A DNA stretch of 54,313 nt, from NCBI GenBank assembly GCA_964442785.1, contig CAYTZW010000003.1, positions 1 to 54,313 on the forward strand. Reading direction: 5' to 3'. This document shows, piece after piece, positions 2 through 44,206 of this stretch. The DNA comes from an uncultured Erysipelotrichaceae bacterium (GTDB lineage Bacteria > Bacillota_I > Bacilli_A > RFN20 > DUOF01). Made by a program: the position numbers and the translations under genes. The number at the start of each line of letters is the position of its first letter. Position 1 is the first letter of the stretch. The notes beneath the pieces are model-generated. The model ran no database searches. It saw only the letters and a program-made list of their open reading frames with translations, and was not told the DNA's origin.

Positions 2-1075
2 GTTCATAAGGATTTAAAAACAAATACGTGGTTTTTTAGAAAACGAGTACAAAATATAGATGGTTCTGTTCGTAATTGCAAAAGAAGCGGTTTTAAAACA
101 AAAAAAGAAGCTTTGAAAGCTGAAGTTGAGTTTGGCTTTGATGATGTAAAAGAAAAGATAACTATTAATGACTTGTATTGTTATTTTCTTCAAGACCAAA
201 AGAAAAAAATAAAAGCTAGCCACTTATATAATAAAAAAATAGCTATAGAAAAATATATTTTGCCTATTTTTGGTGAAAAGGATTGTAATAAAATTACAAT
301 TAATGATATTAGACAATGGCAAAATCAGTTAATGACTGAGAAAATAAGTGTAGGTAGAATTAATACTGTTCATTCGTTCTTTAGTCAGATGTTAGAGTAC
401 GGACGTTTGTTTTATAATGTTGAAAAAAATCCTGTTAAAATGATAGGACCTTTAAAAAATAATTCAATTAAAAAATCTACTATAGAAGTATGGACAAAGG
501 AAGAATTTAATCAATTTATATCAAAAGTAGAAAATCCTGTTTATAATACTCTTTTTAATTTACTATATTATACAGGATTGCGAATTGGTGAGGCATTAGC
601 TTTATCTTTTGAAGATGTAAATTTAGAAACTAAAATTCTTATTGTTAATAAATCTATTAGTTTTAAGTCGGATTCTGGCAAATATGATGTGTCAACTCCT
701 AAAACAATAAATTCTAATAGAGTTATAAATCTACCTTCGAGTTTAATTGAAAACCTAGATAAATATTTTGCGTTTTTGAAAACAAATAAAATTAAGCCAA
801 AAAACACTGATTTTTTATTTGGAATAAATAAACCTCTTTCTAAGACTACAATAGCAAGGATTAAGGACAAAGCTTGCAATTTAGCAAAAGTTAAAAGAAT
901 TAGAATTCACGATTTTAGACATACGCACGCTTCGACACTAATATTAATGGGATTAGACCCTATTTATATTAAAGAAAGGTTAGGTCATGAAGATGTGTCA
1001 ACAACATTAAATACATACTCTCATTTATTTGCTGAGAGTAGAAAAAACATTATTAGTATTATTGAAAAAATGTAA
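2..1075 (+). CDS. Tyrosine recombinase / phage-type integrase (5' partial, runs off the window)
   Basis: The frame is open from nt 2 (VHKDLKTNTWFFRKRVQNIDGSVRNCKRSGFKTKKEALKAEVEF, arm-binding-type N-domain) into tracked ORF 113..1075. Catalytic signature: TGLRIGEAL (R), HDFRHTHAS (HxxR), LGH, TYSH (Y). Confidence 0.9.
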   Translation, partial: VHKDLKTNTWFFRKRVQNIDGSVRNCKRSGFKTKKEALKAEVEFGFDDVKEKITINDLYCYFLQDQKKKIKASHLYNKKIAIEKYILPIFGEKDCNKITINDIRQWQNQLMTEKISVGRINTVHSFFSQMLEYGRLFYNVEKNPVKMIGPLKNNSIKKSTIEVWTKEEFNQFISKVENPVYNTLFNLLYYTGLRIGEALALSFEDVNLETKILIVNKSISFKSDSGKYDVSTPKTINSNRVINLPSSLIENLDKYFAFLKTNKIKPKNTDFLFGINKPLSKTTIARIKDKACNLAKVKRIRIHDFRHTHASTLILMGLDPIYIKERLGHEDVSTTLNTYSHLFAESRKNIISIIEKM

Positions 1076-1151: not shown

Positions 1152-1225
1152 TGGAGCAAGTGACGGGAATCGAACCCGCGTAGTCAGCTTGGAAGGCTGA
1201 AGTTCTACCATTGAACTACACTTGC
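1152..1225 (-). tRNA. tRNA-Gly (anticodon UCC)
   Basis: The reverse complement reads GCAAGTGTAGTTCAATGGTAGAACTTCAGCCTTCCAAGCTGACTACGCGGGTTCGATTCCCGTCACTTGCTCCA. It has a 7-bp acceptor stem, anticodon loop CTTCCAA, T-loop GGTTCGATTCC and an encoded CCA. Confidence 0.95.
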
Positions 1226-3648: not shown

Positions 3649-3678
3649 AAAAAAAAGATTAACCGATGTTAATCTTTT
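3649..3678. terminator. Bidirectional intrinsic terminator
   Basis: 9-bp stem aagattaac/gttaatctt (3655-3663 / 3668-3676) between an A8 run and a T4 run. It is strong for the minus-strand HEPN gene. Confidence 0.7.
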
Positions 3679-3684
3679 GGTTCT

Positions 3685-5589
3685 TTAAATTTTCTTTGGT
3701 TTTTCTATTTCTAAAAGTTTTTCTTTGTAAAACACTGGATTACTACAAAGTTCCATTATGTTGTTAGCACTACATTTTATTGTTAGTCCGGTATTTTCCA
3801 TTTCAAAAATCAATTCGGTATCTTCAATATTATCTACTAAATTTGAATAGTTTATATAATATTTTCCGTGTAGTAAGATATTCCTTAATTGATTAAAAAT
3901 AAACATTTTATCTTTGTAGCCTTGTGGAGAATTGAATTCTTCGCTATTTTTTGTTTTGAATTGGAATCCGTCCATATCAATTTTCTTAATTGAATTGTAG
4001 ACATCATTTGTTAAAACAGGATATTCGTTGTTTTCATTTTTTTTGCAAGTTTTTTCGGTAAATTGAGTAGCTATTAAAGTATTATAAATAGAAGCACAAG
4101 AAACAACGAACGCTAATTCGTGGTCAGCAGTGTAAGACCTAAAATAATTATTAACAACTAATCTTTCATTTTTAGAAAAATCTCGCCCGCTTACCCTGTT
4201 AAGATAAGCATAAACATTTAAAGCCGTACTTGAAGATTTGTTTCTTAATAGTTTTGCAAACATTTCTAATTCATATTGTTTTAATTCTTCTAAATGGTCA
4301 ATGAAATGTTGGACAATTTTGACTTTTTCTAACCCTGGAACTTCAATTCTAGTTGATTCAATCATTGTTGAGAATAGAGAAAGGATAGCAGGAGTTAGTC
4401 CATTTTTGACTTTTTTATTTCCAAATCCTCCGTCTATTTTTAAGTTACTGGAAGTAGCTAGAAAATATATTTGTTCATTAATATCATTGATTTCATAAAA
4501 TTGTTTGTCGTATCTAAATCTATTTTTCCATTGTTCGACATAAAGAGAATAGTTTTGGTCATCTCTAGCAAAATTAAAATCGATTTCAAAGTCAGTAAAT
4601 CCTTGTTTTTCTAAAGCTTGTGCTAGATATGTTTTAATTGTTTCTTGATGTTTTTTTATAATAATGGAAGCTTCTTCAGGGCTTTTTTTGTTTAATTGAT
4701 ATTTTAATTTTTTATCCATTGCATATACTTTGTTAAATAATTGTTCTTCAATAAAATCTCTAGTAGCCATATAGTTATCTTTTAAGTTTTTGATAGTTAT
4801 CGTCGTATGAATAGTATTATTAAAAATACGTTCTAAATCTTCTTCACTTTGTAAAGGTTTGTTATCGATAAGGATATAACGTGGAAAATAGAAATTGGTT
4901 TCGTTTTCATTTGTTTTAAAATAGGCACTATGAAAATAAACTTTTTTAAATTCTCTTAGCCACGATTCACATAATAAAACATCTATATTTTCACTTTTGT
5001 CTTTAAATAAGTAACAAGTTTCGTTTAGATTAGGGAAAGTTCCTTCATAAAAAGAATTAAGTTCTTCTTTTCCGATTTTTCGATAATCATTATGAGCCAT
5101 ATTGTTACGAATAATGTTAACAATATGACGGGGACTTAATTTTTTTTGATTTAAGTAATTAGACACTAAAACACTGTTGCATTGGGCGGTAACTTCATAA
5201 TCTTTTCCTTTGTTTACTCTTACTTCTTTTCCAAATATATCTTTATAAATAATTTCATTACCATTACGGGTTGTTTTTAAGTCGGCTATTTTTTGTTGGA
5301 TTAAATCTCCTTCGTGAGTTTCTTTTTTTATGACTTTTTTGAAAGTTCCTTGTTCTACCATTGTTTTTAGTGTTTCATCATCAATATCTATTGAAGAATT
5401 ATTAAGCAAGGAAAGAAAAGCAAAATCGGTAATTTGGTCATAAATGAATTGAAAATTCAATTCTTTATTTCTACCAATTTGGTCATAAAAAACATAGTTT
5501 TTATTATCAACTAAATCTTCTTTCACATAATCTTTTTGAGTGGCTATATCAAATAAAAATTGCAAATATTTTTGGACATCTTGGTACAT
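3685..5589 (-). CDS. Orphan dual-HEPN protein (634 aa), predicted RNase
   Basis: Two R-x4-H motifs of the RN-type: IIRNNMAHNDY (nt 5109-5092) and NQLRNILLHGKYY (nt 3885-3868), about 400 aa apart. Start set at ATG 5589, 8 nt after AAGGAG (5603-5598). The tracked GTG 5598 overlaps the SD. Confidence 0.65.
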   Translation of the reverse strand: MYQDVQKYLQFLFDIATQKDYVKEDLVDNKNYVFYDQIGRNKELNFQFIYDQITDFAFLSLLNNSSIDIDDETLKTMVEQGTFKKVIKKETHEGDLIQQKIADLKTTRNGNEIIYKDIFGKEVRVNKGKDYEVTAQCNSVLVSNYLNQKKLSPRHIVNIIRNNMAHNDYRKIGKEELNSFYEGTFPNLNETCYLFKDKSENIDVLLCESWLREFKKVYFHSAYFKTNENETNFYFPRYILIDNKPLQSEEDLERIFNNTIHTTITIKNLKDNYMATRDFIEEQLFNKVYAMDKKLKYQLNKKSPEEASIIIKKHQETIKTYLAQALEKQGFTDFEIDFNFARDDQNYSLYVEQWKNRFRYDKQFYEINDINEQIYFLATSSNLKIDGGFGNKKVKNGLTPAILSLFSTMIESTRIEVPGLEKVKIVQHFIDHLEELKQYELEMFAKLLRNKSSSTALNVYAYLNRVSGRDFSKNERLVVNNYFRSYTADHELAFVVSCASIYNTLIATQFTEKTCKKNENNEYPVLTNDVYNSIKKIDMDGFQFKTKNSEEFNSPQGYKDKMFIFNQLRNILLHGKYYINYSNLVDNIEDTELIFEMENTGLTIKCSANNIMELCSNPVFYKEKLLEIEKPKKI

Positions 5590-5609
5590 AATTAACACTC
5601 CTTGACATT

Positions 5610-5638
5610 ATTATCTTTAAATCTAAAAGAGATGTAAA
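5610..5638 (-). promoter_or_regulatory. Sigma-70-type promoter for the dual-HEPN gene
   Basis: Minus strand has TTTACA (5638-5633), a 17-nt spacer, then GATAAT (5615-5610), inside the 75-nt gap (5590-5664) after the upstream gene. Confidence 0.5.
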
Positions 5639-5664
5639 TAGATTAAGGAAATTTTGTGATGAAA

Positions 5665-6156
5665 TTATTTTAAAAGCATACTAAAATGGGCAGTACAAAT
5701 ATTTGGTAAGACTTTTTGAGTTGCTCTAATTATTCCAATGTCATCTTCAAAGAAATAAACCATATATTCTTCATCTTTTAACATTTTTTCAATGTATTTT
5801 GATTTAAGAAAATTTTTTGTTTCTTTGTCATATTTTTCTTCTTTTAATTTGATTATTTGAACAAAGTTTTTATTAACAAAAGGCATATTAGTTTCTAGCC
5901 ATTTTAATTTATCTTGTTTTTGTTCTTCATATAAACAATTACTAACAATTCCTATCGTTATATTTTCTTCTTCACTTAGACTTTTAAAAATTTCAATCGT
6001 AGTTTGAATTGGTCTTCTTTTCAAATAGAAAGAAGGTGCGTTTGAGAGAATGTTTTTTTTCTCATTAATTCCAAATTCTGCGACTACTCCGTCCATATCA
6101 GTAAGTATTAATACATTAGTATATTTTGCTTGTTCTTTTATATCATCGATTATCAT
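5665..6156 (-). CDS. HAD-superfamily hydrolase, 5'(3')-deoxyribonucleotidase-like (NT5C/YorS-like)
   Basis: Motif I LTDMDGVV (DxDGV), motif II IVSN, motif IV FFEDD. Small 163-aa size. AAGGTGA SD. Confidence 0.5.
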   Translation of the reverse strand: MIIDDIKEQAKYTNVLILTDMDGVVAEFGINEKKNILSNAPSFYLKRRPIQTTIEIFKSLSEEENITIGIVSNCLYEEQKQDKLKWLETNMPFVNKNFVQIIKLKEEKYDKETKNFLKSKYIEKMLKDEEYMVYFFEDDIGIIRATQKVLPNICTAHFSMLLK

Positions 6157-6299: not shown

Positions 6300-7640
6300 A
6301 TGGGATTATTGCAAGAAATGTATGATAAATCAAATAATCTAAATATGGAACATAAAGAAGATATTCACGATGTGATTTATGTTTCTTTTTTTGATGTTTT
6401 AAAAGAAAAAAAAGTTAAAAGAAAAGTCTTTCAATTATCTACTTGTGTTTGTTTAGAAAGTCAAAATATTCATAAATTTTATGTAAAATGTCCTAAATGT
6501 GAAGGAACGGGAACAATAAATATTTTCAGCAATGATTTAACTTGTAATTGTTGTAAGGGAAAAGGAAAAATATGTAAAGAAATATGTCCTGTTTGTAAAG
6601 GAAAAACGACAATTATAAGAAAAAAAGAAATGGAGATTTCTCTTAATAAATCATTACTAGATAATCCTGTTTTAATTGTTTCTAAAAAGGGAATTAATCA
6701 AGGTGATTTGATTTTAAAAGTAGTCATTTTTGATAAATATTTTTATTCTATTAAAGATGATGATATTTATTCTAAAAAGGTTCTTTATTTTTCTAAAAAA
6801 GAATTTAAAAATAGTAAAGAAGTAGAAACTATGGTAGATTTTAGTTCTATCAAATTAGATAAAATTGTTTATCAACAAGTAATAAAACTAGAAGGAAAAG
6901 GTTTAAATGGAAAAGATTTTTATCAACCTATTCAATGTGAAGTTGCAGGAAATAAGGGAAAAAATAATTATGGAAACCTTATTTTAGAGAAAAAGGAAAA
7001 AGGAGTTTATGTTAAAAAAGAAAGTTTATATAGTCAAAATTTAGTTTTTGATTATAGTTTGACTAAACCTTTAAATGACCCAAATTATTTGTATTTAGAT
7101 TTAACAAATTTTAGTAAGAATTATGATATTTTAACTTTTAAAGAAATGGGATTTCCAAGTTTAGACGGTGGTGTCAATGGTGATTTATTAATCAAAGTTT
7201 TCGTTGGAAAATACTTTGTTAAAGATAATGCTTTATATCGTTATGATGAACAATTAACTAAAACAGAACTTAGTAGTCATAAAAAAAGTATTATTGTAGA
7301 TAATGAAAAGTATTTAGTTAATATGGACAAAAATCAGGAAAGTAATTATTTTTTGTCTATGGGTAATTTTGGTTTGTTGGACAAAAATAATAAACAAGGT
7401 GCTTTTTTTACTTTAATTAATCATTCTTATTCTATTTATCAAATAAGTACTTTTAACAAGGAAAATCATTTTTATATTGAAGATTATCAACATTTCTTTG
7501 GAGAAAAAGTAAAGAGTTATGCTTCTTGTTCCAATATGGAAGATTATATTGAAGTTAAAGTGTCTTCTAATCCTGTTAGAGTAAAAGATAGTAAAGGTAA
7601 TTTAGTAATTGTTTCTTTATTAAAAAAGGAGGAATTGTAA
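6300..7640 (+). CDS. DnaJ-like protein lacking the J-domain (Zn-finger plus DnaJ C-terminal substrate-binding domains)
   Basis: CxxCxGxG-type repeats CPKCEGTG, CNCCKGKG and CPVCKGKT (nt 6489-6609). Two GDL-strand motifs typical of DnaJ CTDs (NQGDLILKVVIF, VNGDLLIKVFV). No HPD/J helix region. AAGGAG SD. Confidence 0.7.
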   Translation: MGLLQEMYDKSNNLNMEHKEDIHDVIYVSFFDVLKEKKVKRKVFQLSTCVCLESQNIHKFYVKCPKCEGTGTINIFSNDLTCNCCKGKGKICKEICPVCKGKTTIIRKKEMEISLNKSLLDNPVLIVSKKGINQGDLILKVVIFDKYFYSIKDDDIYSKKVLYFSKKEFKNSKEVETMVDFSSIKLDKIVYQQVIKLEGKGLNGKDFYQPIQCEVAGNKGKNNYGNLILEKKEKGVYVKKESLYSQNLVFDYSLTKPLNDPNYLYLDLTNFSKNYDILTFKEMGFPSLDGGVNGDLLIKVFVGKYFVKDNALYRYDEQLTKTELSSHKKSIIVDNEKYLVNMDKNQESNYFLSMGNFGLLDKNNKQGAFFTLINHSYSIYQISTFNKENHFYIEDYQHFFGEKVKSYASCSNMEDYIEVKVSSNPVRVKDSKGNLVIVSLLKKEEL

Positions 7641-10600
7641 TGCTATATTTTGATTTTAGCCAAATTTATCAAAATCGTTATGTTAAAAGAGCTCAAGAAT
7701 CTGATTTTTTTAAAGAATTAGAATTGCTTGATATAACTTTTTCTTCTTATTTGAAAGATATTTTTTCTAAATATAAAAACTTTTATGTTTCTTGTCCTAA
7801 TATTGAAAGAAAAGTAGTCAAAGAAGTTAAAAAAGATGTTTACAAGAATTACTTTTTTCGTCCTGTAACGGATAATGAAAAAGAAATTACTTTAAAAACG
7901 GATTTAGTTTTTAGTGAAGAAAAAATTGCTATCGAAGTTAAAGATATTTATATAAATAAAAATAAGCCTAAACAAAAGTATGAAAATAAAATATCTTGTT
8001 CTGTTTCTACTTTTATCGAAAATAAAAAAGTTAAAAGTGATGCCGATTTATTGCGAAATATTATTTCAAATACGCCTTTTATATGTGATGAAAAAGGAAA
8101 AAATTTTATTAGAAAATGGCTTGATTATTTAGAATTTGAAAAAAACTTTTTTTATGACAAAATAGGTTATCTTTATAGTTTAAGTTTTGAAGTTTTAGAA
8201 ATAGTGGAAATAAAAAGAAATCTTGAAAATTTCCAAAAGTATAAAGATGTTCTTTATTATGATGATAGAAGTAATTATCTTTATGTTAAAAAGGAAGATT
8301 ATTTAGGAAATGAAAATTCGTTTTTTGTTGTCGAATTTGAAGTTTTTGTTAATGATGATAATTATAATTGGGTTTCTTCTTTTATAAGTGAAGATATCGA
8401 AATTGCTAATGTTAAAGAAGCGTTAGATGAAAATAAAAAATTGAAAAATAATACCCTTAGTGATATTGAGTTTTCTTTTAAAACAAAAAGATTAGGAAGT
8501 CTTTTAAAACCTTTAACTTGCAAAGATGAAAACATTTACACTTTTTCTAAATTTTGGGTAGGAGATGAATTGATTCTTGAAAGAATTAATGATTACATTT
8601 GTTCCTTTTTTGGAGAAAAACCTTTGCTTGTTAATATTTTAAGTGGTGATTTAGCATTGTATAAACGTGGAAAACAAGCAATGTGTGATTTGTTGGAAGG
8701 TAATGTTAAAAATCCTGGGATAATCTCTTATTTAATGAACCCCGAAAGTTTAACTTTAAATGATGATGTTGCTTTACAAGACATTAAGTGGTCAGCTTCT
8801 TATTTAGACCAATATCAAAAGGAAGCTATTTGGAAAGCTTTAAATAGTGATTCTTTATTTTTAATACAAGGCCCTCCTGGAACAGGAAAAACTCAAGTAA
8901 TTAGTGAACTTGTTTATCAAGCAAATAAAATAGGGAAAAAGGTTTTATTGTCTAGTCAAACTCATATTGCCATTGATAATGCTTTGGATAGATTACCTAA
9001 TCAATTAGATATTCTTCCAATAAGATTAATCAATTTGGAAAGAAAATCTAATTCTGTTAAAGATTTTTTACCAGATAAATTAGTGGATAATTTATACAAT
9101 AAAATAAAGGAAAATTATCATAATAAACAAGATGATTTTATAAAATTTTATAAACAAATAAAGGAAAATAAAAAAGAATTAAAGGAAATAAAAGATTTAA
9201 TAATTGAAAATAAAATAGAAAGAGAAAATTATTTATCTTTAAAAGAAACTATTAATCAATTAAAGACAAAAATATTAATTAACAATAATGAAATTAATAA
9301 CTTGTTTTTGTCCATAAAAGAAAACAAAAAAGATTTAGATGTTTTATCTTTGTTAAAAAATAATGATTATCAAATTAAAGATTATGGTTGTTATATCAAT
9401 TTGGATTTGTTCAAGGATTTTAATAAGATTATTGATAAATATCAACTTAATAGTTTTTATAATGTTGAAAATAATGATTTGAATCAATATTTTAAAATTT
9501 GTTTAAGTGAAAACTTATGGGGAAATGAAAAATTTAGAAAAGATTATCAAAATATAGTAGTTTCTTTTAAAATTGATAATCAAAAAGAAATAAGTATCAA
9601 GGAAAATGAAAAAGAAATTGAAAAGTTAACAAAGGAAAAAATAGTTTTCCTTTCACAATTAGAAAAAGAAGAAAAAGAAATAAGAATTTTAGAAAAAAGT
9701 AAAAAGAAAATCTTTAATCAAATAGATAATTATTTTGCGAATAATTTAGATTTTGATAATCTTGATATTCCTTTGACTGATTTAGATAAAGTTGCTTTTT
9801 TGGAAGAAGAACTAACAAAAAAAGAACAAGAATTAAAAGAAAAAGAAGAAAGATATTTACACTATAAATCTTTATATGATGATTGTGTTGAATTTTTAAA
9901 TAAGAAAAATGATATTGAAGATGATAGAAAAAAATTAACTCGATATTTATTGAATAATAACGCTAATGTCTATGGAATTACTTGTAATGCTAATTCTTCT
10001 TATTTGGAAGAAAAAAATGAATATTTGAAATCTTTAGGTTTAGGAAATGTCGATTTAAAGAATATTGATTTTGATATTACCATTATTGATGAAGTTTCCA
10101 AAGCCACTCCAATCGAATTATTAATTCCTATTTTATATTCTAAAAGCATTGTTTTAGTAGGAGACCACCGACAATTACCACCAACATTTAAGTATAAACC
10201 AAATATGTTAGATAGTTTGAGCAGTGAAAACAAAATAAGTGTCGACAAATTAAAAGAATATCAAAATATGGTCGAAGATAGTTTGTTTAGTAATTTATTC
10301 ACCCGTACTAAAAGTAATAAAGCAATGTTAGTTAATCAATATCGAGCTCATCAACAAATTGTTGAAGTTACTAATACTTTTTATGAAGATAAATTACAAA
10401 TCGCTGATGTTGAAAAACAAAATAAAGCGAAGGAACACCATATTCAAATTAGTTTAAAAGATAATCCTTTGTTTACTAAAAATGTTCATACTTATTGGTT
10501 CAATTCTTTTTATAATAAAGACGGCTCAATTTCTTATGAGAAAAAGTTGTCTAAAGGTAATGAATTGTCTTCTTCTTTTATCAATGAAGAAGAAATCTAT

Positions 10601-11059
10601 TTGACCGAAAATATTTTAAAAGAATTAGATAATTTCTTTGCAGAAAATGAAATTGAAATGTCTTCTATTGGTGTTATTAGTTTGTATAATGACCAAGTTA
10701 AAGAAATAAGAAAAAAAGTTTTAAAAACAAAATATAAAAAACTTCAAATAGATGCTAGTAAAATATCTAGTGTTGATGAATTTCAAGGAAAAGAAGAAGA
10801 TATTATTATTGTCAGTTTAGTAAGAAATAATCCTAAATTTAATGCAGGTGAATTTACTAAAAAATTTGAAAGAATAAATGTTGCTACTTCAAGGGCTAAA
10901 AAAATGCTTATTGTTTTAGGAGCGACACCTTTCTTTACTAAATTAGAAGTTCCAATTACTTCAATGGAAAATGGTGAAAAAGTAAATCGTAAATTATACA
11001 AAGAAGTTTATGAAAGATTTGTCGGAAAAATAGAAAATCCGAATGTATTTTTTGATTAA
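7640..11059 (+). CDS. Upf1/Sen1/Dna2-like SF1B helicase (AAA_11/AAA_12 type) with an unknown ~400-aa N-domain and a long coiled-coil insert
   Basis: Motif I GPPGTGKT (8870-8893), Ia SSQTHIAIDNALDRL, II IIDEVSKA (~10082-10105), III VGDHRQLPP, IV QYRAHQQI, V VDEFQGKEEDIIIVSLVR, VI INVATSRAKKMLIVLG. A K/E/N-rich heptad-like region spans ~9092-9947. The start overlaps the upstream stop codon (TAATG 7638-7642). Confidence 0.9.
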   Translation: MLYFDFSQIYQNRYVKRAQESDFFKELELLDITFSSYLKDIFSKYKNFYVSCPNIERKVVKEVKKDVYKNYFFRPVTDNEKEITLKTDLVFSEEKIAIEVKDIYINKNKPKQKYENKISCSVSTFIENKKVKSDADLLRNIISNTPFICDEKGKNFIRKWLDYLEFEKNFFYDKIGYLYSLSFEVLEIVEIKRNLENFQKYKDVLYYDDRSNYLYVKKEDYLGNENSFFVVEFEVFVNDDNYNWVSSFISEDIEIANVKEALDENKKLKNNTLSDIEFSFKTKRLGSLLKPLTCKDENIYTFSKFWVGDELILERINDYICSFFGEKPLLVNILSGDLALYKRGKQAMCDLLEGNVKNPGIISYLMNPESLTLNDDVALQDIKWSASYLDQYQKEAIWKALNSDSLFLIQGPPGTGKTQVISELVYQANKIGKKVLLSSQTHIAIDNALDRLPNQLDILPIRLINLERKSNSVKDFLPDKLVDNLYNKIKENYHNKQDDFIKFYKQIKENKKELKEIKDLIIENKIERENYLSLKETINQLKTKILINNNEINNLFLSIKENKKDLDVLSLLKNNDYQIKDYGCYINLDLFKDFNKIIDKYQLNSFYNVENNDLNQYFKICLSENLWGNEKFRKDYQNIVVSFKIDNQKEISIKENEKEIEKLTKEKIVFLSQLEKEEKEIRILEKSKKKIFNQIDNYFANNLDFDNLDIPLTDLDKVAFLEEELTKKEQELKEKEERYLHYKSLYDDCVEFLNKKNDIEDDRKKLTRYLLNNNANVYGITCNANSSYLEEKNEYLKSLGLGNVDLKNIDFDITIIDEVSKATPIELLIPILYSKSIVLVGDHRQLPPTFKYKPNMLDSLSSENKISVDKLKEYQNMVEDSLFSNLFTRTKSNKAMLVNQYRAHQQIVEVTNTFYEDKLQIADVEKQNKAKEHHIQISLKDNPLFTKNVHTYWFNSFYNKDGSISYEKKLSKGNELSSSFINEEEIYLTENILKELDNFFAENEIEMSSIGVISLYNDQVKEIRKKVLKTKYKKLQIDASKISSVDEFQGKEEDIIIVSLVRNNPKFNAGEFTKKFERINVATSRAKKMLIVLGATPFFTKLEVPITSMENGEKVNRKLYKEVYERFVGKIENPNVFFD

Positions 11060-11072
11060 TAGGAGGTATTTT

Positions 11073-11864
11073 ATGAAAATTAATTTTTTATCTTTCACGG
11101 ATTATAAATTAAAAATTAATACTTATAAAAAATGTGATTTAGATTTTTTTAGTTTTTTGTTACTTAAAATTATCACAAGTGAAAATAAAGAAAACAAGTC
11201 ATTAAAATCTATCCTTTTTGATTTTGAAATTACTGAACCTTTGATGTATTTAGCTTCTAATGCTTTTTATGAATTAATTGATAATCATTTAATCGAAACT
11301 TCTTTATCTTTTGAAGAAGTAAAATGTTTAGATATTATCACCAATGATTTGACTTATAAATGTTTAGAAAATAACTATTTTTTGATTTTAGAAGATAGTA
11401 AAGAACAAAGTGTTGCCATTAATCCTTTGAATTATAAAATTGTTTTTAATGATAACAAATATAAAGATGATTATCTTGTTTATAATAAAGAAATTAGTTT
11501 ATCTTTGTTAAATGAAATAATTAATGAAAACAAAAAAAGTTTATTTAATATTAGCGATGATTACCAAATAGAAGTAGAAATACTAGAAGCTAATCCTTTG
11601 TTTACAGAATTAAATTGTAAAGACGTGGAATTTCCTTTAGATTTGAAAGAAATTATTTATGACAATTTGCAATACTTTGAAAAAGAAAATCTAAAAGAAT
11701 ATGAAAAAGATTTCGTGATTTTAACAAAAGAATATGAACTAGAAAAAAATGATAAATATGATTTTATAGCAACTTTGAATAAAGAAAAATATGGCTGTTT
11801 TTATTATTTGGTTGCTTCTAATATTGGAAAAATACCAATGATAAAAAGGACAAAATTAAAATAA
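11073..11864 (+). CDS. Hypothetical protein (263 aa), operon member
   Basis: ATG 11073 follows AGGAGG (11061-11066), 14 nt after the helicase stop codon. No catalytic motifs recognised. The N-terminal ~90 aa may be a small helical/wHTH-like module (weak). Confidence 0.6.
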   Translation: MKINFLSFTDYKLKINTYKKCDLDFFSFLLLKIITSENKENKSLKSILFDFEITEPLMYLASNAFYELIDNHLIETSLSFEEVKCLDIITNDLTYKCLENNYFLILEDSKEQSVAINPLNYKIVFNDNKYKDDYLVYNKEISLSLLNEIINENKKSLFNISDDYQIEVEILEANPLFTELNCKDVEFPLDLKEIIYDNLQYFEKENLKEYEKDFVILTKEYELEKNDKYDFIATLNKEKYGCFYYLVASNIGKIPMIKRTKLK

Positions 11865-11879
11865 TAGGAGGTGAAAAAG

Positions 11880-13280
11880 ATGGATTATTACAAAACTTTG
11901 AAAATAAATGAAAATGCGACTAAAAAAGAAATCGAAGAAGCATATAAACTCTTAAGTGATACTTATAATCCTCTTTATAATACTTCTCCGATTGCTTATA
12001 AAAGATATCGAGAAATTCAATATGCGTACCAAATGCTTCAAAATAAAGAATTGATTACTTTTGAAGAAAATGAAATAACTATTCCTGAAGAAAAAGCAGA
12101 AAAATTTGATTATGAAAATTATTTTAATCATCAAAAAGAAATAAATTATATTCCACTGGAAAATGAAGATATCGAATTATATCAAAATGTTAAAACCGAA
12201 AACGAAACTTTAGACCTTTATAAATATCCTTGTGAGATAAATGTTGATTATTTAAAACTTCTTTTAAATTGCCAAATTGATGTTCTTGTTTTTGAAAAAG
12301 AAGAATGTAAAGAAGCTACTCTTTCCATTTGTCCCGTTTGTAATGGAATAGGAGTAGTAGAATATCAACAAAAAAATGTTGTTTGCCCTAAATGTAATGG
12401 AAAAAAGGAAATAAAAGAAGGCCATTGTCATCATAGTTTAAGAAAAGAAAAAAAAGTAAGATTAGATTTGTCAAAAATAGATGTTACAAAACCTTTGATA
12501 ATCTTGGATACTTACTTAACTTTTAACATTTTAAATAAGGACAAAGTAAAAGAAACTAAAGATGAAATATATGTTAATTATGATTTGTCAAAAGAAGAAA
12601 TATTAAAGGGCTTTAATCAAGAATATAATACCGATAAAGGTGTTTTATCTGTTAAGACAAAAAACTTTGAAGAAGACTATATTCTTAATTATGAAGATAA
12701 AAAACTTATTTTTCATTTCAATACTTTTTCTTTTGATGGAAACAATATTGAAAAAACGATTATTTTCAATAAAAAACATTTACATAAAACTTTATATCTT
12801 AACTTAGATAACTTAACTTATTCTTTAGAAAAAACCTCTCAATTTAATTATGAATTTGTTTTATCTAATCTAAAAGGTTCTTTTAAAGTCAAAGAAAAAG
12901 GAGAAAAAGGATATTTAGAAGGAAAAAATGGTGATTTAATTTTGAATTATTTTGCTTGTAATCATTATTTTGAAAGTAGCAAAAATATAATGATAGAAGA
13001 AACTAGTTTACTATCCAATCTTTTTAAAGATTTTAAAATAAAAGGAAAAAATTATTTGCTTGAAAAAGATGATAAATTAGTAATTTTAACAGGAACATCT
13101 TCTAAAAAAGATTACCTAAAAAACTATTTTTGGTTTAAAATCTTGATTTATTTTATTTGGTTATTAATACCACTTATTTTACTAATAGCACCTTTGAGTA
13201 AAGAATTATTTATTTCGATGTGTATTGTTTCTATAAGTTATGCTATTTTAGCAAATGTTTTGTTAAGATTAAAAATATAA
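11880..13280 (+). CDS. Membrane-anchored J-like/DnaJ-like Zn-finger protein with a degenerate HPD motif
   Basis: N-terminus DYYKTLKINENATKKEIEEAYKLLSDTYNPLYN...YREIQYAYQMLQN aligns to the J-domain, but HPD is replaced by NPL (11967-11975). Has CPVCNGIG (12330-12353), CPKCNGKK (12384-12407) and GKNGDLILNYF. Two C-terminal hydrophobic helices (~13125-13270). ATG 11880 lies 8 nt after AGGAGG. Confidence 0.7.
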   Translation: MDYYKTLKINENATKKEIEEAYKLLSDTYNPLYNTSPIAYKRYREIQYAYQMLQNKELITFEENEITIPEEKAEKFDYENYFNHQKEINYIPLENEDIELYQNVKTENETLDLYKYPCEINVDYLKLLLNCQIDVLVFEKEECKEATLSICPVCNGIGVVEYQQKNVVCPKCNGKKEIKEGHCHHSLRKEKKVRLDLSKIDVTKPLIILDTYLTFNILNKDKVKETKDEIYVNYDLSKEEILKGFNQEYNTDKGVLSVKTKNFEEDYILNYEDKKLIFHFNTFSFDGNNIEKTIIFNKKHLHKTLYLNLDNLTYSLEKTSQFNYEFVLSNLKGSFKVKEKGEKGYLEGKNGDLILNYFACNHYFESSKNIMIEETSLLSNLFKDFKIKGKNYLLEKDDKLVILTGTSSKKDYLKNYFWFKILIYFIWLLIPLILLIAPLSKELFISMCIVSISYAILANVLLRLKI

Positions 13281-13293
13281 AGGAGGAAATAAA

Positions 13294-15570
13294 ATGAAAA
13301 AAAATATTATTTTATGGTCATTTTTCTTGATTTTGCTTTCTTTCTTTATGATTTTTACTAGTGAAGAAATAAAAGCAAAAGAAGTATCTACCAATGATTT
13401 TGCTATCTCTGTTGGTAAAGATAATGTTATCTGGCCTTCTTTTGAAAAAAATGAAGATGATACTTATACTTTACATTTTGGAGTAGAAATAAAAGGAACT
13501 AGTCAAGAAGATTTAACTTTTTCTTTGAAAAGTGAAATAACTTATTTTATCAATGATGAAGAACAAAAAGAAATTGACGAGTTAGATAATAATGGAGATT
13601 ATTTTTCTTCCCAAGGAAGTTATACTTTTGATTTATATGATGAAGATATGCCTAGTTATGTTTTAGGAGAATCTCATATTGATAAGATTTATTTTCAATT
13701 TACTTTTGAATGTATAAGTAATCCAACTTACACGTATGCCATTCAAGTTAGTCCCCTTATCGAATTGGAAGTCCAATATGATTATACAAAACCTGTTCTT
13801 TGTGAAAATGAAAATGAATGTAATTATTTAAGCAATAATTCATATTTAACAGAAGATTATCAATTTAAGTTTACAGCGAGTGATGATGTTTCAGGGGTTG
13901 ATTATATTAAATACTTTTTTAGTACCTCTTATTTTATGAATATAAATAAAGATAAATTTGTTAATCAAATCGTTAATGGAGGGACTTTTTCCTACCAAGA
14001 AAATAGAGAATATTTAATTAATTATGGGCAAGCTACTATAAATATCTATTTATATGTTCTTGTCCAAGATAATGCGTCTAATTATTTGTGTATTTGTTTT
14101 AATTATCTTTACCTTTTAGAAGAAGTAGAAAACAATTTGATTTATAACAAAGAAAACAGTTCTATTCCTAATACCGATAACTATTATAAATCTATTAATA
14201 TCAAAATAGATGTTGAAAATGATTTGTATTATGGTATTAGTTATTATAATTATCTTGATGCTTCTAGTTTGAATAATAGCAAATATCTTTATGATAAAGA
14301 AAAAGGAATTGAAATTAATTTACCTTATACTTGTGAAATATATGTTTTTATTGTTTCGTTTGGTAGTGATGATAGTTTTACTTTTATGATTTTACGTTAT
14401 AAACTTGATAATACTGCTCCTACTGTTACTAGTGCCAATTATCCAGACCTTGACCTTACATATAAAAAGGTTACTTTGAATTTTCAATTTTCGGATAATT
14501 CAGGAACATTTAGTTCTTTTTATCAAATTTCTTCTACTATATTAGAGGATTTAGGAACGATTACTAATGTTTATGAAAATGGAACGGATTTAATTGTGGG
14601 AGAAAACCTAAATGGAGAATATTATATATATTTTGCTATTTATGATGCTTTAGAAAATGTTAATTGGTTTTATCTTCATTATATTTTTGATAATCTACCC
14701 CCTGTTTTAACCTTATCAATAAGTGAACAAGATGCTTTGCAAGTATCTAATGGGAAAAGCATCAAATTAACTTTAAATGAGTTAAAAGGAACTACTTTTA
14801 AATGTAAATGGGCTTTAGATAATTTAGAATTAAGCGAAAATGACTTAGATGCAACTTGTAACAAAGATTCTTACATATCCGCTCCTAATAATAGTGAAGG
14901 ATATTATCGTTTATGGGCTTATTTAGAAGATGATGCCGGTAATAGCACTCTTTATCATTCATATCCTTTTTTAATAGATAGCAAAGGTCCTATAGTAGAG
15001 ATTATTCCTACTTATAATGATACAACTTATCGAGAAACTAACCTTATTGATATTAAAGCAACAGATACCTATACAGGCGTTTCTACCGTGTATTATAAAT
15101 GGTTGACTTATGACCAAAATATAACTTCAGGTACAAGTGTTAATTATGAAGTAATTGATAAAATTGATTATCCTTCCGATAGTTATGGTGTTTATGCCTT
15201 GTGGGTTTATGCTATAGACGGTGCAGGAAATGCTACTTTGTACAAAGATAGCAATAAATACTATGTAGATACTGAAAAATATAATTTATCTTTAATTGGT
15301 AAAGAAAAAATAACAATAGTGAAAAATGAAAAATTTGTTGACCCTGGAGTTAAAGCTTTAAAAGGCGAAAGAAAAGTCGCTTACCAAATTGAAAGCGACC
15401 TAGATATTTCCAAAACAGGAGTTTATACCATTACATACAAATTAGACAATTTAACAATCGAAAGAAAAGTAGAAGTTACTAATACTACTTCGTATTATCT
15501 TCTTATTTCTATTTCAACTTTTCTAGGCTTAATTGTTAGTTTTCTTCCTTTAAGAAAGAAAAAGGTTTAG
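13294..15570 (+). CDS. Surface protein with signal peptide, repeated Ig-like domains and a C-terminal TM anchor
   Basis: N-terminal MKKNIILWSFFLILLSFFMIF; C-terminal YYLLISISTFLGLIVSFLPLRKKK. Recurrent D-x-[ST]G / D-x-AGN strand motifs (SDDVSGV, QDNASN, SDNSGT, EDDAGNST, TDTYTGV, IDGAGNAT). DUF5011-like KFVDPGVKA...GVYTITYKL. AAGGAGG SD. Confidence 0.75.
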   Translation: MKKNIILWSFFLILLSFFMIFTSEEIKAKEVSTNDFAISVGKDNVIWPSFEKNEDDTYTLHFGVEIKGTSQEDLTFSLKSEITYFINDEEQKEIDELDNNGDYFSSQGSYTFDLYDEDMPSYVLGESHIDKIYFQFTFECISNPTYTYAIQVSPLIELEVQYDYTKPVLCENENECNYLSNNSYLTEDYQFKFTASDDVSGVDYIKYFFSTSYFMNINKDKFVNQIVNGGTFSYQENREYLINYGQATINIYLYVLVQDNASNYLCICFNYLYLLEEVENNLIYNKENSSIPNTDNYYKSINIKIDVENDLYYGISYYNYLDASSLNNSKYLYDKEKGIEINLPYTCEIYVFIVSFGSDDSFTFMILRYKLDNTAPTVTSANYPDLDLTYKKVTLNFQFSDNSGTFSSFYQISSTILEDLGTITNVYENGTDLIVGENLNGEYYIYFAIYDALENVNWFYLHYIFDNLPPVLTLSISEQDALQVSNGKSIKLTLNELKGTTFKCKWALDNLELSENDLDATCNKDSYISAPNNSEGYYRLWAYLEDDAGNSTLYHSYPFLIDSKGPIVEIIPTYNDTTYRETNLIDIKATDTYTGVSTVYYKWLTYDQNITSGTSVNYEVIDKIDYPSDSYGVYALWVYAIDGAGNATLYKDSNKYYVDTEKYNLSLIGKEKITIVKNEKFVDPGVKALKGERKVAYQIESDLDISKTGVYTITYKLDNLTIERKVEVTNTTSYYLLISISTFLGLIVSFLPLRKKKV

Positions 15571-21657: not shown

Positions 21658-22662
21658 TTAATTATATTTTCTCATTTCTTGTAGAAAGGAATCTTCCAAA
21701 TCTAATCCATTATTTTTAGCCATAATAAAATACTTTTCTGCCTTTGAAAAATCTTGTTCTACTCCTATTCCTTCCAAGTAAATTACTCCTAAATTGAAGG
21801 CTGCTTTTTCACTTCCTTCATTCGCTGCTTTTTCATACCAATATATCGCTTTTTCTTGATTTTGCAATTTACCAGTGTCTAAATCATAACAAATTCCTAA
21901 GTTAAAGGCTGCTCTTACATTGCCTTTATTAGCGGCTTTTGTATACCAATATACCGCTTTTTCTAAATCTTCTTTAACACCTTGTCCATTTCCATAACAA
22001 TAACCTAAATTGCACTCCGCTAACGTATTACCCTGATTTGCTGATGCAGTGTACCAATATACTGATTGGGTATAGTCTTGTTCCGTTCCTTCTCCATATT
22101 CATAGCAATATCCTAGATAAAATTGAGCCCTGTCATCTCCATTAGTTGCTGCCTTCATAAACCACTCGAAAGCCCGATAGTAACATTCGCCTTCATAATA
22201 TAATTTTCCTAAATTATATTGTGCTTTCATATACCCTTGATTTGCTGATGCAGTGTACCAATATATCGCTTTTTGATAGTCTTGTTCTACTCCTATCCCT
22301 TTTGAATAAACATACCCTAAATTATATTGACCATTAGCATATCCTTCATTAGCGGCTTTAGTGAATAATTCTATGGCTTTCTTTTCATCTGTTGGAACAC
22401 CATATCCAAAAGAATAACAATATCCTAAATAAGAATTTGCTCCAATATAGCCATTATTAATAGCGTTATTTAATAAAGTAATTGCCTTATTATAATCTTG
22501 ATTTATATCTTCTCCTTTTACGTATTTAATTGCAAGAACCGATTGAGCAACTACATCATTATCCTCACTTAGAGATTGCAATTCTTCAATACTCTTTTTT
22601 TCATATAAATCTCTTAATTCTTTGGCTTCTTTATAATTATTAGGTATATTCTTTCCTTTCAT
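21658..22662 (-). CDS. Sel1-like (SLR/TPR-family) repeat protein
   Basis: About eight ~36-aa repeats of the type A..WY.KAA.QG...AQ.NLG.CY..G.GV..D. Confidence 0.85.
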   Translation of the reverse strand: MKGKNIPNNYKEAKELRDLYEKKSIEELQSLSEDNDVVAQSVLAIKYVKGEDINQDYNKAITLLNNAINNGYIGANSYLGYCYSFGYGVPTDEKKAIELFTKAANEGYANGQYNLGYVYSKGIGVEQDYQKAIYWYTASANQGYMKAQYNLGKLYYEGECYYRAFEWFMKAATNGDDRAQFYLGYCYEYGEGTEQDYTQSVYWYTASANQGNTLAECNLGYCYGNGQGVKEDLEKAVYWYTKAANKGNVRAAFNLGICYDLDTGKLQNQEKAIYWYEKAANEGSEKAAFNLGVIYLEGIGVEQDFSKAEKYFIMAKNNGLDLEDSFLQEMRKYN

Positions 22663-22686
22663 AAAATTACCTCCAAAGTATAATAT

Positions 22687-24285
22687 CTATTTTAAACTAT
22701 TTTCTATATCTTTTATTTCTTTCTCTGTTGTGTATTTACGGTTTACCATTTCTTCTAAAACTTGTTCAGCTTTACCATGCCCTCCTTTTTTAGCCATAAG
22801 CAAATATTTTACCGCTAGTTTATAATCTTGTGGTAGTCCAGCAAATCCGTCGCAATAGCAAAGTCCTAAATTGTACATAGCCATAGTATTTCCCTTACTA
22901 GCGGCTTTTTTATATAAATCTATTCCTTTCTTACAATTCTCAACATTTGAAAAATCTCTACAATAAATCCAACCTAAATCACATTGTGCTTGGACATTTC
23001 CACTATTGGCTGCTTTTATAAGCCATTGTTCTGCAAAATAATAAGATTCTTGTTTTATATAAAAATTACCTAATCGTTGTTGCATTTCAGGGTCTCCTTG
23101 ATTTGCAGCTTTTACATACCAATACTCTGCCTTATTTTCATCTTTTACAACATTATAGTCTCCAAACTCCAAACAAGTACCTAAAAAAACTTGTGATTCT
23201 ACATCTCCGTGTTCAGCAGCTTTGGTATACCATTTTATTCCTAAAGAATAATCTTGTTTTACTATTTCTCCATTTAGATAGAAATAACCTAGGTTTTTTT
23301 CTGCAAATTTATTTCCCTTATTTGCGGATTTTTGATATAAAGAAAAAGCTTTTTCTTTGTCCTTTTCTATTCCTACACCATTATAATAACAATCTGCTAA
23401 TAGGTATTGTGCTTGAGCGTAATTTTTATTTGCGGATTTAGTATATAGTTTAATCATTTCTTTGTAATCTTGTTTTACTCCTAAACCTTTTGCATAAAGT
23501 TCTCCTAAATCACACATTGCTCTTTCATCATCTTGTTCGACAGCTTTTTTGTACCACTCTACTGCTTTTGTGTAATCTTGTTTTACTCCCCTACCCGTCT
23601 TATAGCAATAAGCCAAATTAGTTTGAGCAGTAACATCATTTTGTTCGGCAGCTTTAGTATACCAATACACAGCATTTTCTAAATTTTTGGCAATTCCTGC
23701 TCCACGCTCATAACAATATCCTAAATCAGATTGTGCATCTGCATTTCCTTGCTTTGCCGCTTTTTTGTACCATTCTACTGCTTTGGCTTCGTCCATATTT
23801 ACGCCTCTACCATAATAATAGCGTTCTCCTAAAGAATGTTGTGCAGCATCATAACCTTGTTTTGCTGATAAAGTATACCACTTTACTGCTTTCTTGTAAT
23901 CTTGTTTTACTCCAAGTCCCTTATAATAACAGACGCCTAAATTATGTTGACCAACTGCATATCCTCCCTCAGCGGATTTAGTAAACACTTCGATTGCCTT
24001 TTTTAAGTCTTTTTCTACTCCAATACCATTAATATAAAAATAGCCCAATTTAGACATTGCTTCAACATATCCATTATCACTAATACTAGTTAGTAATTTT
24101 ATTCCTTTTTCGCAATCTTTTTTTATTTTTTCTCCTAAAACATATCTTATAGCAAGAGTAATTTGAGCGGCTACATCATTTTCAGTAGCAAGTTTTATTA
24201 GTGTTTCATTATCTTTGTTTTCATAATTATCCATTATTTCTTTATTTTTTTGATAATTCTTTTCTATCGTTTTTAATTTTCCCAT
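22687..24285 (-). CDS. Sel1-like repeat protein (paralog of the downstream gene)
   Basis: About 13 SLR repeats. Its N-terminal ~80 aa align with those of the 21658-22662 product. Confidence 0.85.
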   Translation of the reverse strand: MGKLKTIEKNYQKNKEIMDNYENKDNETLIKLATENDVAAQITLAIRYVLGEKIKKDCEKGIKLLTSISDNGYVEAMSKLGYFYINGIGVEKDLKKAIEVFTKSAEGGYAVGQHNLGVCYYKGLGVKQDYKKAVKWYTLSAKQGYDAAQHSLGERYYYGRGVNMDEAKAVEWYKKAAKQGNADAQSDLGYCYERGAGIAKNLENAVYWYTKAAEQNDVTAQTNLAYCYKTGRGVKQDYTKAVEWYKKAVEQDDERAMCDLGELYAKGLGVKQDYKEMIKLYTKSANKNYAQAQYLLADCYYNGVGIEKDKEKAFSLYQKSANKGNKFAEKNLGYFYLNGEIVKQDYSLGIKWYTKAAEHGDVESQVFLGTCLEFGDYNVVKDENKAEYWYVKAANQGDPEMQQRLGNFYIKQESYYFAEQWLIKAANSGNVQAQCDLGWIYCRDFSNVENCKKGIDLYKKAASKGNTMAMYNLGLCYCDGFAGLPQDYKLAVKYLLMAKKGGHGKAEQVLEEMVNRKYTTEKEIKDIENSLK

Positions 24286-25050: not shown

Positions 25051-25677
25051 ATGATTAAAAATTTAGTTTATTCTATTCTTGCAGGTATCTGTATTTCCAT
25101 TGGAGGAATTGCTTTTCTTTCAATAAACAACTCTGTTCTAGGAGCTTTATTTTTCTGTATTGGATTATTTATAATACTAAACTATAAATTCAATCTTTTC
25201 ACTGGAAAACTTTGTTATACTTTCACTAACAATTTAAAATATTTTTACAGCCTTTTTATTACTTTAATCGGTAATTTTATTGGAACAAACCTTGTTGGTT
25301 TATCTTTAAATTTAACTAGATTAGTTTCTTTAAAAGAAAAGTGTGAAATGATTACAAATAATAAACTAAACGACAATTTATTAAGCATTTTCATTTTAGC
25401 AATATTTTGTAACTTACTAATTTATATTGCCGTTGAAGGCTTTAAAAGTGATAACCCTTTAACCAAATACCTTTCCCTATTCTTTGGAGTAGCTACTTTT
25501 GTCATCTGTGGATTTGAACATTGTGTTGCAGATATGTTTTATTTTTCCTTTGCTTTAAGTTATTCTTTTAAAACTTTTTTATGTCTTTTTGTCGTTATTC
25601 TAGGAAATTTTGTGGGTGGTAATCTTTTAGAATTAATCAAGTTACTTTTAAAAGATAAGGACACAAAAACTATTTAG
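25051..25677 (+). CDS. Formate/nitrite transporter (FNT) family protein
   Basis: GFEHCVADMF signature, ~6 TM. ATG 25051 follows AAGGAAGTGG. Confidence 0.7.
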   Translation: MIKNLVYSILAGICISIGGIAFLSINNSVLGALFFCIGLFIILNYKFNLFTGKLCYTFTNNLKYFYSLFITLIGNFIGTNLVGLSLNLTRLVSLKEKCEMITNNKLNDNLLSIFILAIFCNLLIYIAVEGFKSDNPLTKYLSLFFGVATFVICGFEHCVADMFYFSFALSYSFKTFLCLFVVILGNFVGGNLLELIKLLLKDKDTKTI

Positions 25678-26344
25678 AAGAAAGAGAATTTTTAGAAACT
25701 TCTTTTGTTTCCATATTTAATTGTTCACTTGCATAAAATATATCGTTATCATATCTTTTTAAATACTTTTCAGGTAATTTAATTTGAGTAAATCCTGTTA
25801 AAAGGGAAATGATACTCCATTTTATTAAATTAAAAGTCATCACAGGAACAATAAAAGTTATAAAATAGGTTTTGGAACTCATATTCATTTGTTCCATTAA
25901 TTGCCAACCTGTAGTAAAGGTTTGTCTTATGTTTGAAGGAGTTATAAAAAGATAATTCAAAAGCATTAAAGATGAAGTTGTAAAAACTAAAGCAACTAAA
26001 CAACTTAAAATGTATTTTAAAATATTTGATTTTACCTTATTATCAAATATTTTTTTAGTAATAGCATAAATAGACATAAAAATCATTGAACTACAAAAAG
26101 CTGCTATTTCTCCAAATATAGTTCCTCGACCATTAAAATATCTAACAAAACTTCTGATAAAAACTACCAAACTTGTTGATTTCCAGCCTAAATACACTAC
26201 ACATATTAAAACAATTATATCGTTAGGGTCAAACTTCATATAAGGTGCTATTGGATAAGGAATTTGAATTAAAGATAAAACTATCGCTAAAGAAGAAGCC
26301 ATAGCGATAAAGGTGATTTTTTTAACTTTTTCTGCTCTATTCAT
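25670..26344 (-). CDS. ribU: ECF-transporter S component, riboflavin-specific (RibU-like)
   Basis: Six-TM small protein directly downstream of an FMN riboswitch. AGGAGG SD (26357-26352). Confidence 0.75.
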   Translation of the reverse strand: MNRAEKVKKITFIAMASSLAIVLSLIQIPYPIAPYMKFDPNDIIVLICVVYLGWKSTSLVVFIRSFVRYFNGRGTIFGEIAAFCSSMIFMSIYAITKKIFDNKVKSNILKYILSCLVALVFTTSSLMLLNYLFITPSNIRQTFTTGWQLMEQMNMSSKTYFITFIVPVMTFNLIKWSIISLLTGFTQIKLPEKYLKRYDNDIFYASEQLNMETKEVSKNSLSSK

Positions 26345-26388: not shown

Positions 26389-26402
26389 AAAAGAATATTT
26401 TA

Positions 26403-26507
26403 CATCTTCTTCTATCCAGACTTTACTGTCGCCACTAGAATTTCACTAGTTCCTGCTTTCGCTCGCGGGGTTTACCGCCGATTAGGAATTTCACCTTACC
26501 CTGAAGA
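26403..26507 (-). promoter_or_regulatory. FMN riboswitch (RFN element) aptamer
   Basis: Minus strand reads TCTTCAGGGTAAGGTGAAATTCCTAATCGGCGGTAAACCCCGCGAGCGAAAGCAGGAACTAGTGAAATTCTAGTGGCGACAGTAAAGTCTGGATAGAAGAAG. It matches the conserved RFN blocks (AGGG..GGTGAAATTCC..CGGCGGTA..CCGCGAGC..GTGAAATTC..GCGACAGT.AAGTCTGGAT..GAAGA). Confidence 0.9.
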
Positions 26508-26629
26508 TTTTTACTCTTTAATTATAGTTTGTCTTTTTTGTATTGACAACAATTATTAACAATTTACATTTAAAACTATTTTTACTTATTTACAATAAAA
26601 GTATAATATTAGTAATTAGAGGTGAGAAT

Positions 26630-44154: not shown

Positions 44155-44206
44155 TGATTATAGCTTATGATAATTATGCAATATAATAAGTAAGGAGAGT
44201 TTGATT

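Follow-up and report, generated by a model that had tools for sequence, protein, structure and literature searches.

The window studied here, a stretch of 54,313 nucleotides from an uncultured Erysipelotrichaceae bacterium (GCA_964442785.1, contig CAYTZW010000003.1, positions 1 to 54,313, forward strand), encodes a 634-residue orphan protein, P0001, in a stop-free reading frame that occupies 3685..5589 (-) with its stop codon. We propose, at a probability of roughly 0.45, that P0001 acts on its own as a single-chain RNase with tandem HEPN-like motifs and that its role is probably related to conflict or abortive infection. This reading stays the best one because two RNxxxH motifs are conserved at predicted helix ends and because the weak profile matches of its relatives were solely to HEPN-type models. 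An earlier note on the same DNA had suggested, among other options, a free-standing abortive-infection RNase whose HEPN pair is intramolecular, and that suggestion is retained, tentatively, on the strength of the conservation and placement of the motifs.

Two RNxxxH motifs are invariant in a rare protein family

Translation of P0001 is predicted to begin with the ATG at 5589, which is preferred over an alternative GTG at 5598 because an AAGGAG ribosome-binding site (5598-5603, (-)) is located 8 nucleotides upstream of the former. The product is a cytoplasmic protein rich in lysine and asparagine. Two motifs, R161-N162-x3-H166 (IIRNNMAHN; 5092..5109 (-)) and R569-N570-x3-H574-G575 (QLRNILLHG; 3868..3885 (-)), were found at the residues and nucleotides to which the earlier note had assigned a pair of RNxxxH strings. 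When P0001 was shuffled 20,000 times, RNxxxH appeared on average 0.028 times and at least twice in 0.03% of shuffles (P = 0.0003), and the looser pattern Rx4H appeared at least twice with a P value of 0.036. The other 47 open reading frames of the window, 15,739 residues in all, contain five Rx4H and zero RNxxxH. Because the RNxxxH pattern was chosen post hoc, conservation of the motifs is stronger evidence than the chance figure.

Exhaustive scanning of 1.84 billion cluster representatives with HMMER indicated a family of five proteins in all. Clade A (75 to 91% identity) includes the window protein, P0002 at loci L001 to L003, and the copy at L013; clade B (64% identity) includes P0004 at L005 to L007 and a 642-residue protein at L010 and L011; and clade C includes P0003 at L004 and a frameshifted copy at L008. 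Identity between clades is 32 to 37%. The frameshift splits the L008 copy (77-1995) into two overlapping open reading frames, called as P0005 and P0006, on a contig with about 2x coverage; either the sequence is in error there or the copy is a pseudogene. Both RNxxxH motifs are unchanged in every intact member of clades A to C, in the forms IIRNxxxH[NG] and [LI]RNxxxHG. HEPN sites are recognized by a family-conserved Rx4-6H in which a polar residue (N, D, or H) follows the arginine, and both motifs have this arrangement. Outside the motifs, the polar residues E208, R212, E213, K215, K216, R237, D292, D333, and K392 are also invariant.

Word-indexed homologue searches, including one with the family alignment as the query, recovered a single relative with 76% identity. 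Pattern scans based on the family alignment found no loci in 185,579 GTDB species-representative genomes, in JGI metagenomes, or in IMG/VR; the GTDB scans (r232 species representatives) used only two short peptide patterns and are a limited test. Searches of phage and plasmid collections by tblastn gave no match to the target. The host lineage itself appears to be very poorly sampled. All known members of the family belong to that single lineage.

The motifs lie at the ends of helices in two similar predicted modules

AlphaFold2 gave an unusable model of P0001 from two sequences (predicted local distance difference test [pLDDT] score of 43) and a usable one from a six-sequence alignment (pLDDT, 71.9; predicted template modeling score, 0.68). 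In the latter, motif 1 is carried by a helix at residues 153 to 165, with H166 the first residue past that helix, and motif 2 falls in the last turns of a helix at residues 557 to 574, with H574 at the helix end; local pLDDT at the motifs is 78 to 89. R161/H166 and R569/H574 are therefore both placed at a predicted helix end, the position required of a HEPN motif, which has been described as the point where helix-3 finishes and the loop toward helix-4 starts, R being typically followed by N (PMC3710099). In a HEPN site the histidine is also expected to be exposed.

Each motif helix opens a module with the same predicted order of elements. The N-module (residues 153 to 221; 4927..5133 (-); pLDDT, 68 to 87) consists of the RNxxxH helix, a strand, a short helix, a beta-hairpin, and a final helix, ESWLREFKK, which is the most conserved block of the family. 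The C-module (residues 557 to 621; 3727..3921 (-)) has its elements in the same order, the hairpin after each motif helix is built of 6+6 residues, and the predicted secondary structures of the two modules are nearly superimposable. Moreover, hhalign aligned the N-module with the C-module in register over 80 columns with a score of 30.3 (P = 6.5e-5), compared with 9.6 to 15.7 for non-overlapping 100-residue tiles and 11.8 +/- 2.6 (maximum, 18.1) for 100 column shuffles. Extension of the repeat to the upstream helices (TDFAFL versus HELAFV) gave no significant signal. The model as a whole is 49% helix and 18% strand, and the first 270 residues are 27% strand.

If the two motifs form one active site, the modules at about residues 153 to 221 and 557 to 621 would each present RNxxxH at the end of a helix and would pack together within one chain to make a single composite, metal-independent endoRNase site, like those of HEPN dimers and Cas13. 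The N-terminal 150 residues and the central 330 residues may hold that site closed until a trigger is sensed. We infer that P0001 adopts a HEPN fold, brings its two motifs side by side, cleaves RNA, and serves in defense.

Weak profile matches of relatives point to HEPN-type models

Relatives of P0001 and domain segments were scanned against PADLOC at E values up to 10. All matches obtained in relatives were to HEPN-type models, all were weak (E, 4e-4 to 3e-2), and all were confined to clades B and C. Residues 460 to 589 of P0004 (clade B), at the site of motif 2, matched CARF2--CARF_HEPN (E = 6.4e-4), and RT-associated HEPN (RTasHEPN) matched both clade B proteins in a region centered on motif 2 (E, 0.006 to 0.03). 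In clade C, the N-segment of P0003 matched a Cas13a sub-profile of 179 positions (E = 4.4e-4), and Csm6 was matched by the clade C C-terminal half (E = 0.005). Consensus sequences of the family gave no match to PADLOC. The weak matches are consistent with a very divergent HEPN-like site and are no proof of one.

A number of results weigh against a tandem HEPN-like RNase. Full-length P0001 returned nothing meaningful from Pfam, PADLOC, NCBIfam, or PHROGs; its domain segments and the consensus sequences gave unrelated noise against Pfam and NCBIfam at E values up to 10; and when PDB sequences were searched with profiles built from the full family, from the merged module, and from the C-domain, only noise came back (LDH, Cas4, GFAT, and RanBP2, at E values of at least 0.14). 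The PADLOC scan yielded zero matches for clade A, the window protein included, and the matches in the other clades are mostly motif centered and so cannot count as separate from the motif with which the finding began. Foldseek comparison of the pLDDT-72 model with the PDB and BFVD gave nothing below an E value of 0.3, yet the PDB includes solved structures of Cas13, Csm6, RnlA, and AbiF. The model is based on six sequences, and its modules look more like alpha-beta-beta-beta-alpha than a plain four-helix bundle; each motif helix has predicted helices before and after it, with a strand, a short helix, and a beta-hairpin in between. Masking of the nine motif residues lowered the hhalign score of the two modules to 14.7, against 11.0 +/- 2.1 for shuffles, and because of that drop an internal duplication is supported at the sequence level chiefly by the motif; separate, model-based support comes from the agreement in predicted secondary structure. 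Finally, every close relative that was sampled seems to have the gene at a syntenic position, whereas defense genes tend to be distributed more patchily.

The gene has its own predicted promoter and terminator and diverges rapidly

A promoter-like sequence immediately precedes the gene (5610..5659 (-)) and consists of a TCACAAAA box at 5652-5659, a -35 element (TTTACA) at 5633-5638, a 17-nucleotide spacer, and a -10 element (GATAAT) at 5610-5615. The TCACAAAA box, TTTAC[AT], and GATAAT are kept in the window, L001, L013, L005, and L010, across which the coding sequence is merely 33% identical, and the genes upstream of the conserved promoter vary (NT5C-like, NDT-like, or NUDIX). Just past the stop codon, a hairpin followed by a T-run resembles an intrinsic terminator (3649..3678 (-)); hairpin-T structures also follow the stop codon in L002, L004, L005, L010, and L013 and so are present in all clades. 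In L005, an additional terminator precedes the target promoter. These sequence elements lead us to conclude that the gene is a predicted autonomous, monocistronic transcription unit. Neither repeats nor Rfam RNAs were found near the target copies, and the gaps of 12 nucleotides upstream of the gene in L004 and 23 nucleotides downstream of it in L005 leave no room for a conserved noncoding RNA.

Comparison of the window with L010 indicated that P0001 is the most divergent product of all syntenic genes. Identity was 93% for patatin, 87% for UDG, 75% for the NT5C-like protein, 73% for the helicase, 63% for the DnaJ_C-like protein, 43% for the Ig-like surface protein, and 32.5% for the target. Within clade A, the ratio of nonsynonymous to synonymous substitution rates (dN/dS) of the target was 0.13 to 0.17, about twice that of the neighbors SDR, GNAT, and the NT5C-like gene (0.04 to 0.10); the target is therefore under purifying selection and is a real gene. 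The fall to 33% identity between clades exceeds what this rate ratio predicts, and it suggests that evolution sped up episodically or that alleles were replaced; such behavior is typical of conflict genes and is no proof of one. No RNA or protein antitoxin is conserved across the clades. A role in conflict or abortive infection fits better than one in core metabolism because the gene is transcribed alone, because it has no array, antitoxin, or conserved partner, and because it is the fastest-diverging gene locally.

Genes adjoining the target

The window is chromosomal, with genes for IF-2, FtsK, YchF, UDG, and PnuC, a flavin mononucleotide (FMN) riboswitch, and a G+C content of about 26%. Upstream of the target is a gene for a 163-residue NT5C-type HAD phosphatase with the motif I sequence DMDGV (5665..6156 (-); Pfam NT5C, 3.6e-5; PHROG polynucleotide kinase, 1e-6). 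The NT5C-like gene is found on the same strand, upstream of the target and separated from it by 0 to 4 genes, in clades A and B, and it is absent in clade C; its apparent link to the target is positional. A word-indexed search of 5.8 billion clusters recovered only five relatives of the NT5C-like protein, and pattern scans with its alignment, the GTDB species representatives included, found no loci. The interval between the two genes is empty in the window, holds an NDT-like gene in L005, and holds NDT-like, cupin, AP_endonuc_2, and NUDIX genes in L010. The NT5C-like gene of L009 is followed by genes for a methyltransferase and an inositol-monophosphatase-like protein, on a contig that ends before any target copy. 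The interval looks like a small, plastic cluster for nucleoside or nucleotide metabolism. The neighbors of the clade C copies are an APH-like kinase gene, a gene for a 119-residue orphan, rpmE, and prfA.

Divergently oriented on the other side of the NT5C-like gene is a five-gene helicase operon (6300-15570 (+)) that encodes a DnaJ_C-like protein of 446 residues (weak match to PADLOC PDC-M01B), an Upf1/MkoA-like SF1 helicase of 1139 residues (PADLOC MkoA, 1.5e-100), a 273-residue orphan, a J-domain protein of 469 residues, and an Ig-like surface protein of 758 residues. No PLD/MkoB partner was found in the operon. The operon adjoins in the window, L001, L013, L009, L010, and L011 and does not in L005 or L004. 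It evolves fast, with 43 to 73% identity compared with 87 to 93% for housekeeping genes, and may be an undescribed helicase-plus-J-domain system. No partner gene is conserved across all three clades, and the neighbors shared by clades A and B may be inherited synteny because the loci come from close relatives.

Alternative explanations

P0001 might be neither an RNase nor a HEPN protein, with RNxxxH serving as a structural or ligand-binding element of a new duplicated alpha/beta module (alpha-beta-beta-beta-alpha and dsRBD-like in topology only) that acts, for example, in nucleic acid or nucleotide binding or in scaffolding. We consider this explanation doubtful. It accords with the lack of a fold or profile match between the window protein and any HEPN protein, with the mixed alpha/beta prediction (27% strand in the first 270 residues), and with invariant polar residues beyond the motifs, E208, R212, and others, in view of which the functional center could lie elsewhere; however, a hydrophobic-hydrophobic-R-N-x3-H-[GN] string that occurs twice, at helix ends, and is invariant at 32 to 37% identity is the definition of a HEPN catalytic site, and the weak PADLOC matches were exclusively to HEPN-type models. 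Alternatively, the same tandem HEPN-like chemistry could belong to a lineage-specific housekeeping enzyme of RNA processing or decay (compare Las1 and Swt1). Core RNA-processing enzymes rarely fall to 33% identity while UDG and patatin hold 87 to 93%, the L008 copy is frameshifted (though 2x coverage allows a sequencing error), and the pattern scan, as far as it reaches, recovered no member from 185,579 species-representative genomes, all of which makes a housekeeping enzyme unlikely. Such an enzyme would nonetheless suit the syntenic chromosomal position in all sampled clade A and B relatives, the proximity of the clade C copies to rpmE and prfA, purifying selection along the whole gene under a plain sigma-70-like promoter, and the lack of any antitoxin-like partner, mobile-element gene, or defense gene conserved across the clades.

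Two further explanations would tie P0001 to other components. It could be the effector or partner of a neighboring system, either the helicase/J-domain operon, as the earlier note had raised, or the NT5C-NDT-cupin-AP_endonuc_2-NUDIX cluster. The helicase operon adjoins the target in the window, L001, L013, L010, and L011; in clades A and B the NT5C-like gene keeps its same-strand position upstream of the target although both outer flanks are rearranged; and HEPN cleavage leaves phosphorylated ends, which is suggestive in that polynucleotide kinase has a phosphatase part to which the NT5C-like protein is also similar. However, other genes replace the helicase operon in L005, neither cluster is present in L004 or L008, anywhere from 0 to 4 genes intervene, the linkage may be inherited synteny because all clade A and B loci come from close relatives, and a conserved promoter and terminator belong to the target alone, with the extra L005 terminator lying ahead of that promoter. 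Partnership with either cluster is thus very unlikely, and the proposed attachment to the helicase operon is not supported. Still less credible is a Cas13-like RNA-guided effector, whether a degenerate, ancestral, or orphan type VI protein with its guide encoded elsewhere. P0001 resembles Cas13, especially the compact Cas13b/bt/X types, in that a single chain carries two RNxxxH motifs, one about 160 residues from the N terminus and one near the C terminus, a placement that recalls Cas13b, and one clade C N-segment weakly matched the 179-position Cas13a sub-profile (E = 4.4e-4). It differs in its size of 634 residues, in its substantial beta content, in showing no resemblance to Cas13 by profile or by structure, and in having neither a CRISPR array nor accessory genes, although the search for cas genes among the open reading frames of the window was not exhaustive. 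The 54-kb window contained no repeat-spacer array, as the earlier note had stated, and none was found among the 13 related loci, of which L001, L002, L004, L005, and L008 were checked. No CRISPR direct repeat or other RNA near the target was matched in Rfam, and there is no room for a conserved noncoding RNA. PADLOC and NCBIfam gave no Cas13 match for the window protein, no Cas13 structure was among the best 50 of 200 Foldseek matches in the PDB, none of which reaches an E value of 0.001, and the predicted mixture of alpha and beta elements differs from the essentially all-alpha picture of Cas13. The kinship with Cas13 that the earlier note had raised is accordingly not upheld.

Comparison with known RNases and defense systems

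As a tandem HEPN-like RNase, P0001 would share with HEPN RNases (Rx4-6H; Anantharaman et al. 2013, PMC3710099) the hydrophobic-hydrophobic-R-N-x3-H string with N after R at a helix end, two copies available for a composite site, and fast evolution outside the motif. It would differ from them in having no significant match to a curated HEPN family or solved structure and in the strand, short helix, and beta-hairpin that follow the motif helix. Beta-hairpin elaborations are known in Csx1 (PMC3710099), and it is to the Csm6/Csx1 branch of CARF-HEPN proteins that the best weak matches of the clade B and C relatives pointed (6.4e-4 and 0.005), far below any trusted threshold. In contrast to Csm6 and Csx1, the target has no recognizable CARF or sensor domain and no type III CRISPR context, and it carries two motifs per chain rather than forming a homodimer.

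AbiF/AbiD (Abi_2) HEPN toxins, whose RNA antitoxin is encoded in cis, have been proposed as precursors of Cas13 (PMC12737573, a review). P0001 is like them a stand-alone HEPN-type candidate without a CRISPR array, for which an abortive-infection logic is plausible; unlike them, it has no Abi_2 match and no conserved upstream noncoding RNA or repeats, and it has two motifs per chain, in contrast to the one-HEPN homodimer of AbiF. Three known systems were considered and rejected. An AbiF/AbiD RNA-antitoxin system was rejected given that Abi_2 was not found and that the upstream spacer (75 to 105 nucleotides; 12 nucleotides in L004) accommodates the promoter and ribosome-binding site only. Membership in Mokosh was rejected since the target is divergently oriented from the MkoA-like helicase gene, is separately transcribed, and has no PLD domain, and since the helicase is missing beside the L005 and L004 copies. 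A HEPN-MNT type II toxin-antitoxin system was rejected as there is no MNT gene among the neighbors (NT5C-like phosphatase, NDT-like, NUDIX, and 119-residue orphan).

A more far-reaching version of the proposal, which we think quite improbable, is that the target founds a new RNase architecture in which two helix(RNxxxH)-beta-beta-beta-helix modules form the catalytic pair of a single chain and make a self-contained sensor-effector immune protein of an uncultured, low-GC lineage. Such modules, which are without a structural neighbor in the PDB or BFVD, could have branched off from HEPN and become extremely beta-elaborated, or they could represent a different fold in which the RNxxxH site arose again by convergence. 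Were P0001 HEPN-like, the HEPN-type site itself would be of a known kind, and what is new would be a beta-elaborated tandem arrangement that lies outside CRISPR, is unannotated, and has no structural match; were the motifs to form an RNase site, the family would be a small one (634 residues) of tandem HEPN-like proteins with no detectable relative in curated libraries or structure databases. Such proteins would bear on the origin of double-HEPN effectors such as Cas13 from stand-alone toxins and would offer a possible source of compact RNA-cleaving scaffolds. If the motifs are noncatalytic, P0001 is merely a conserved orphan of unknown function. The family shows that fast-evolving, lineage-restricted genes of poorly sampled bacteria are missing from defense-system catalogues.

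Other features of the window

The sole short-period repeat of the window lies at 44036-44154, where four copies of a 20-nucleotide box (AAAGTCCCTTGAAAAAGTTT) recur with a 33-nucleotide period and 13-nucleotide spacers in the intergenic region upstream of an open reading frame at 44201-45526. The repeat is not CRISPR-like because its spacers are too short, and the boxes are possibly a repeated operator or other binding site. At the left edge, a tyrosine integrase gene (113-1075 (+)) adjoins the 3' end of tRNA-Gly(TCC) (1152-1225 (-)), which suggests an integrated element that extends leftwards out of the window. Two adjacent genes at 21658-24285 (-) encode Sel1/TPR-repeat proteins of 334 and 532 residues in a region where the G+C fraction rises to 0.29 to 0.34 from about 0.26, and a 108-nucleotide tandem repeat lies within this stretch at 21788-22011. 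The FMN riboswitch is located at 26400-26512 (-), with a score of 101 bits, upstream of a 224-residue open reading frame at 25670-26344 (-).

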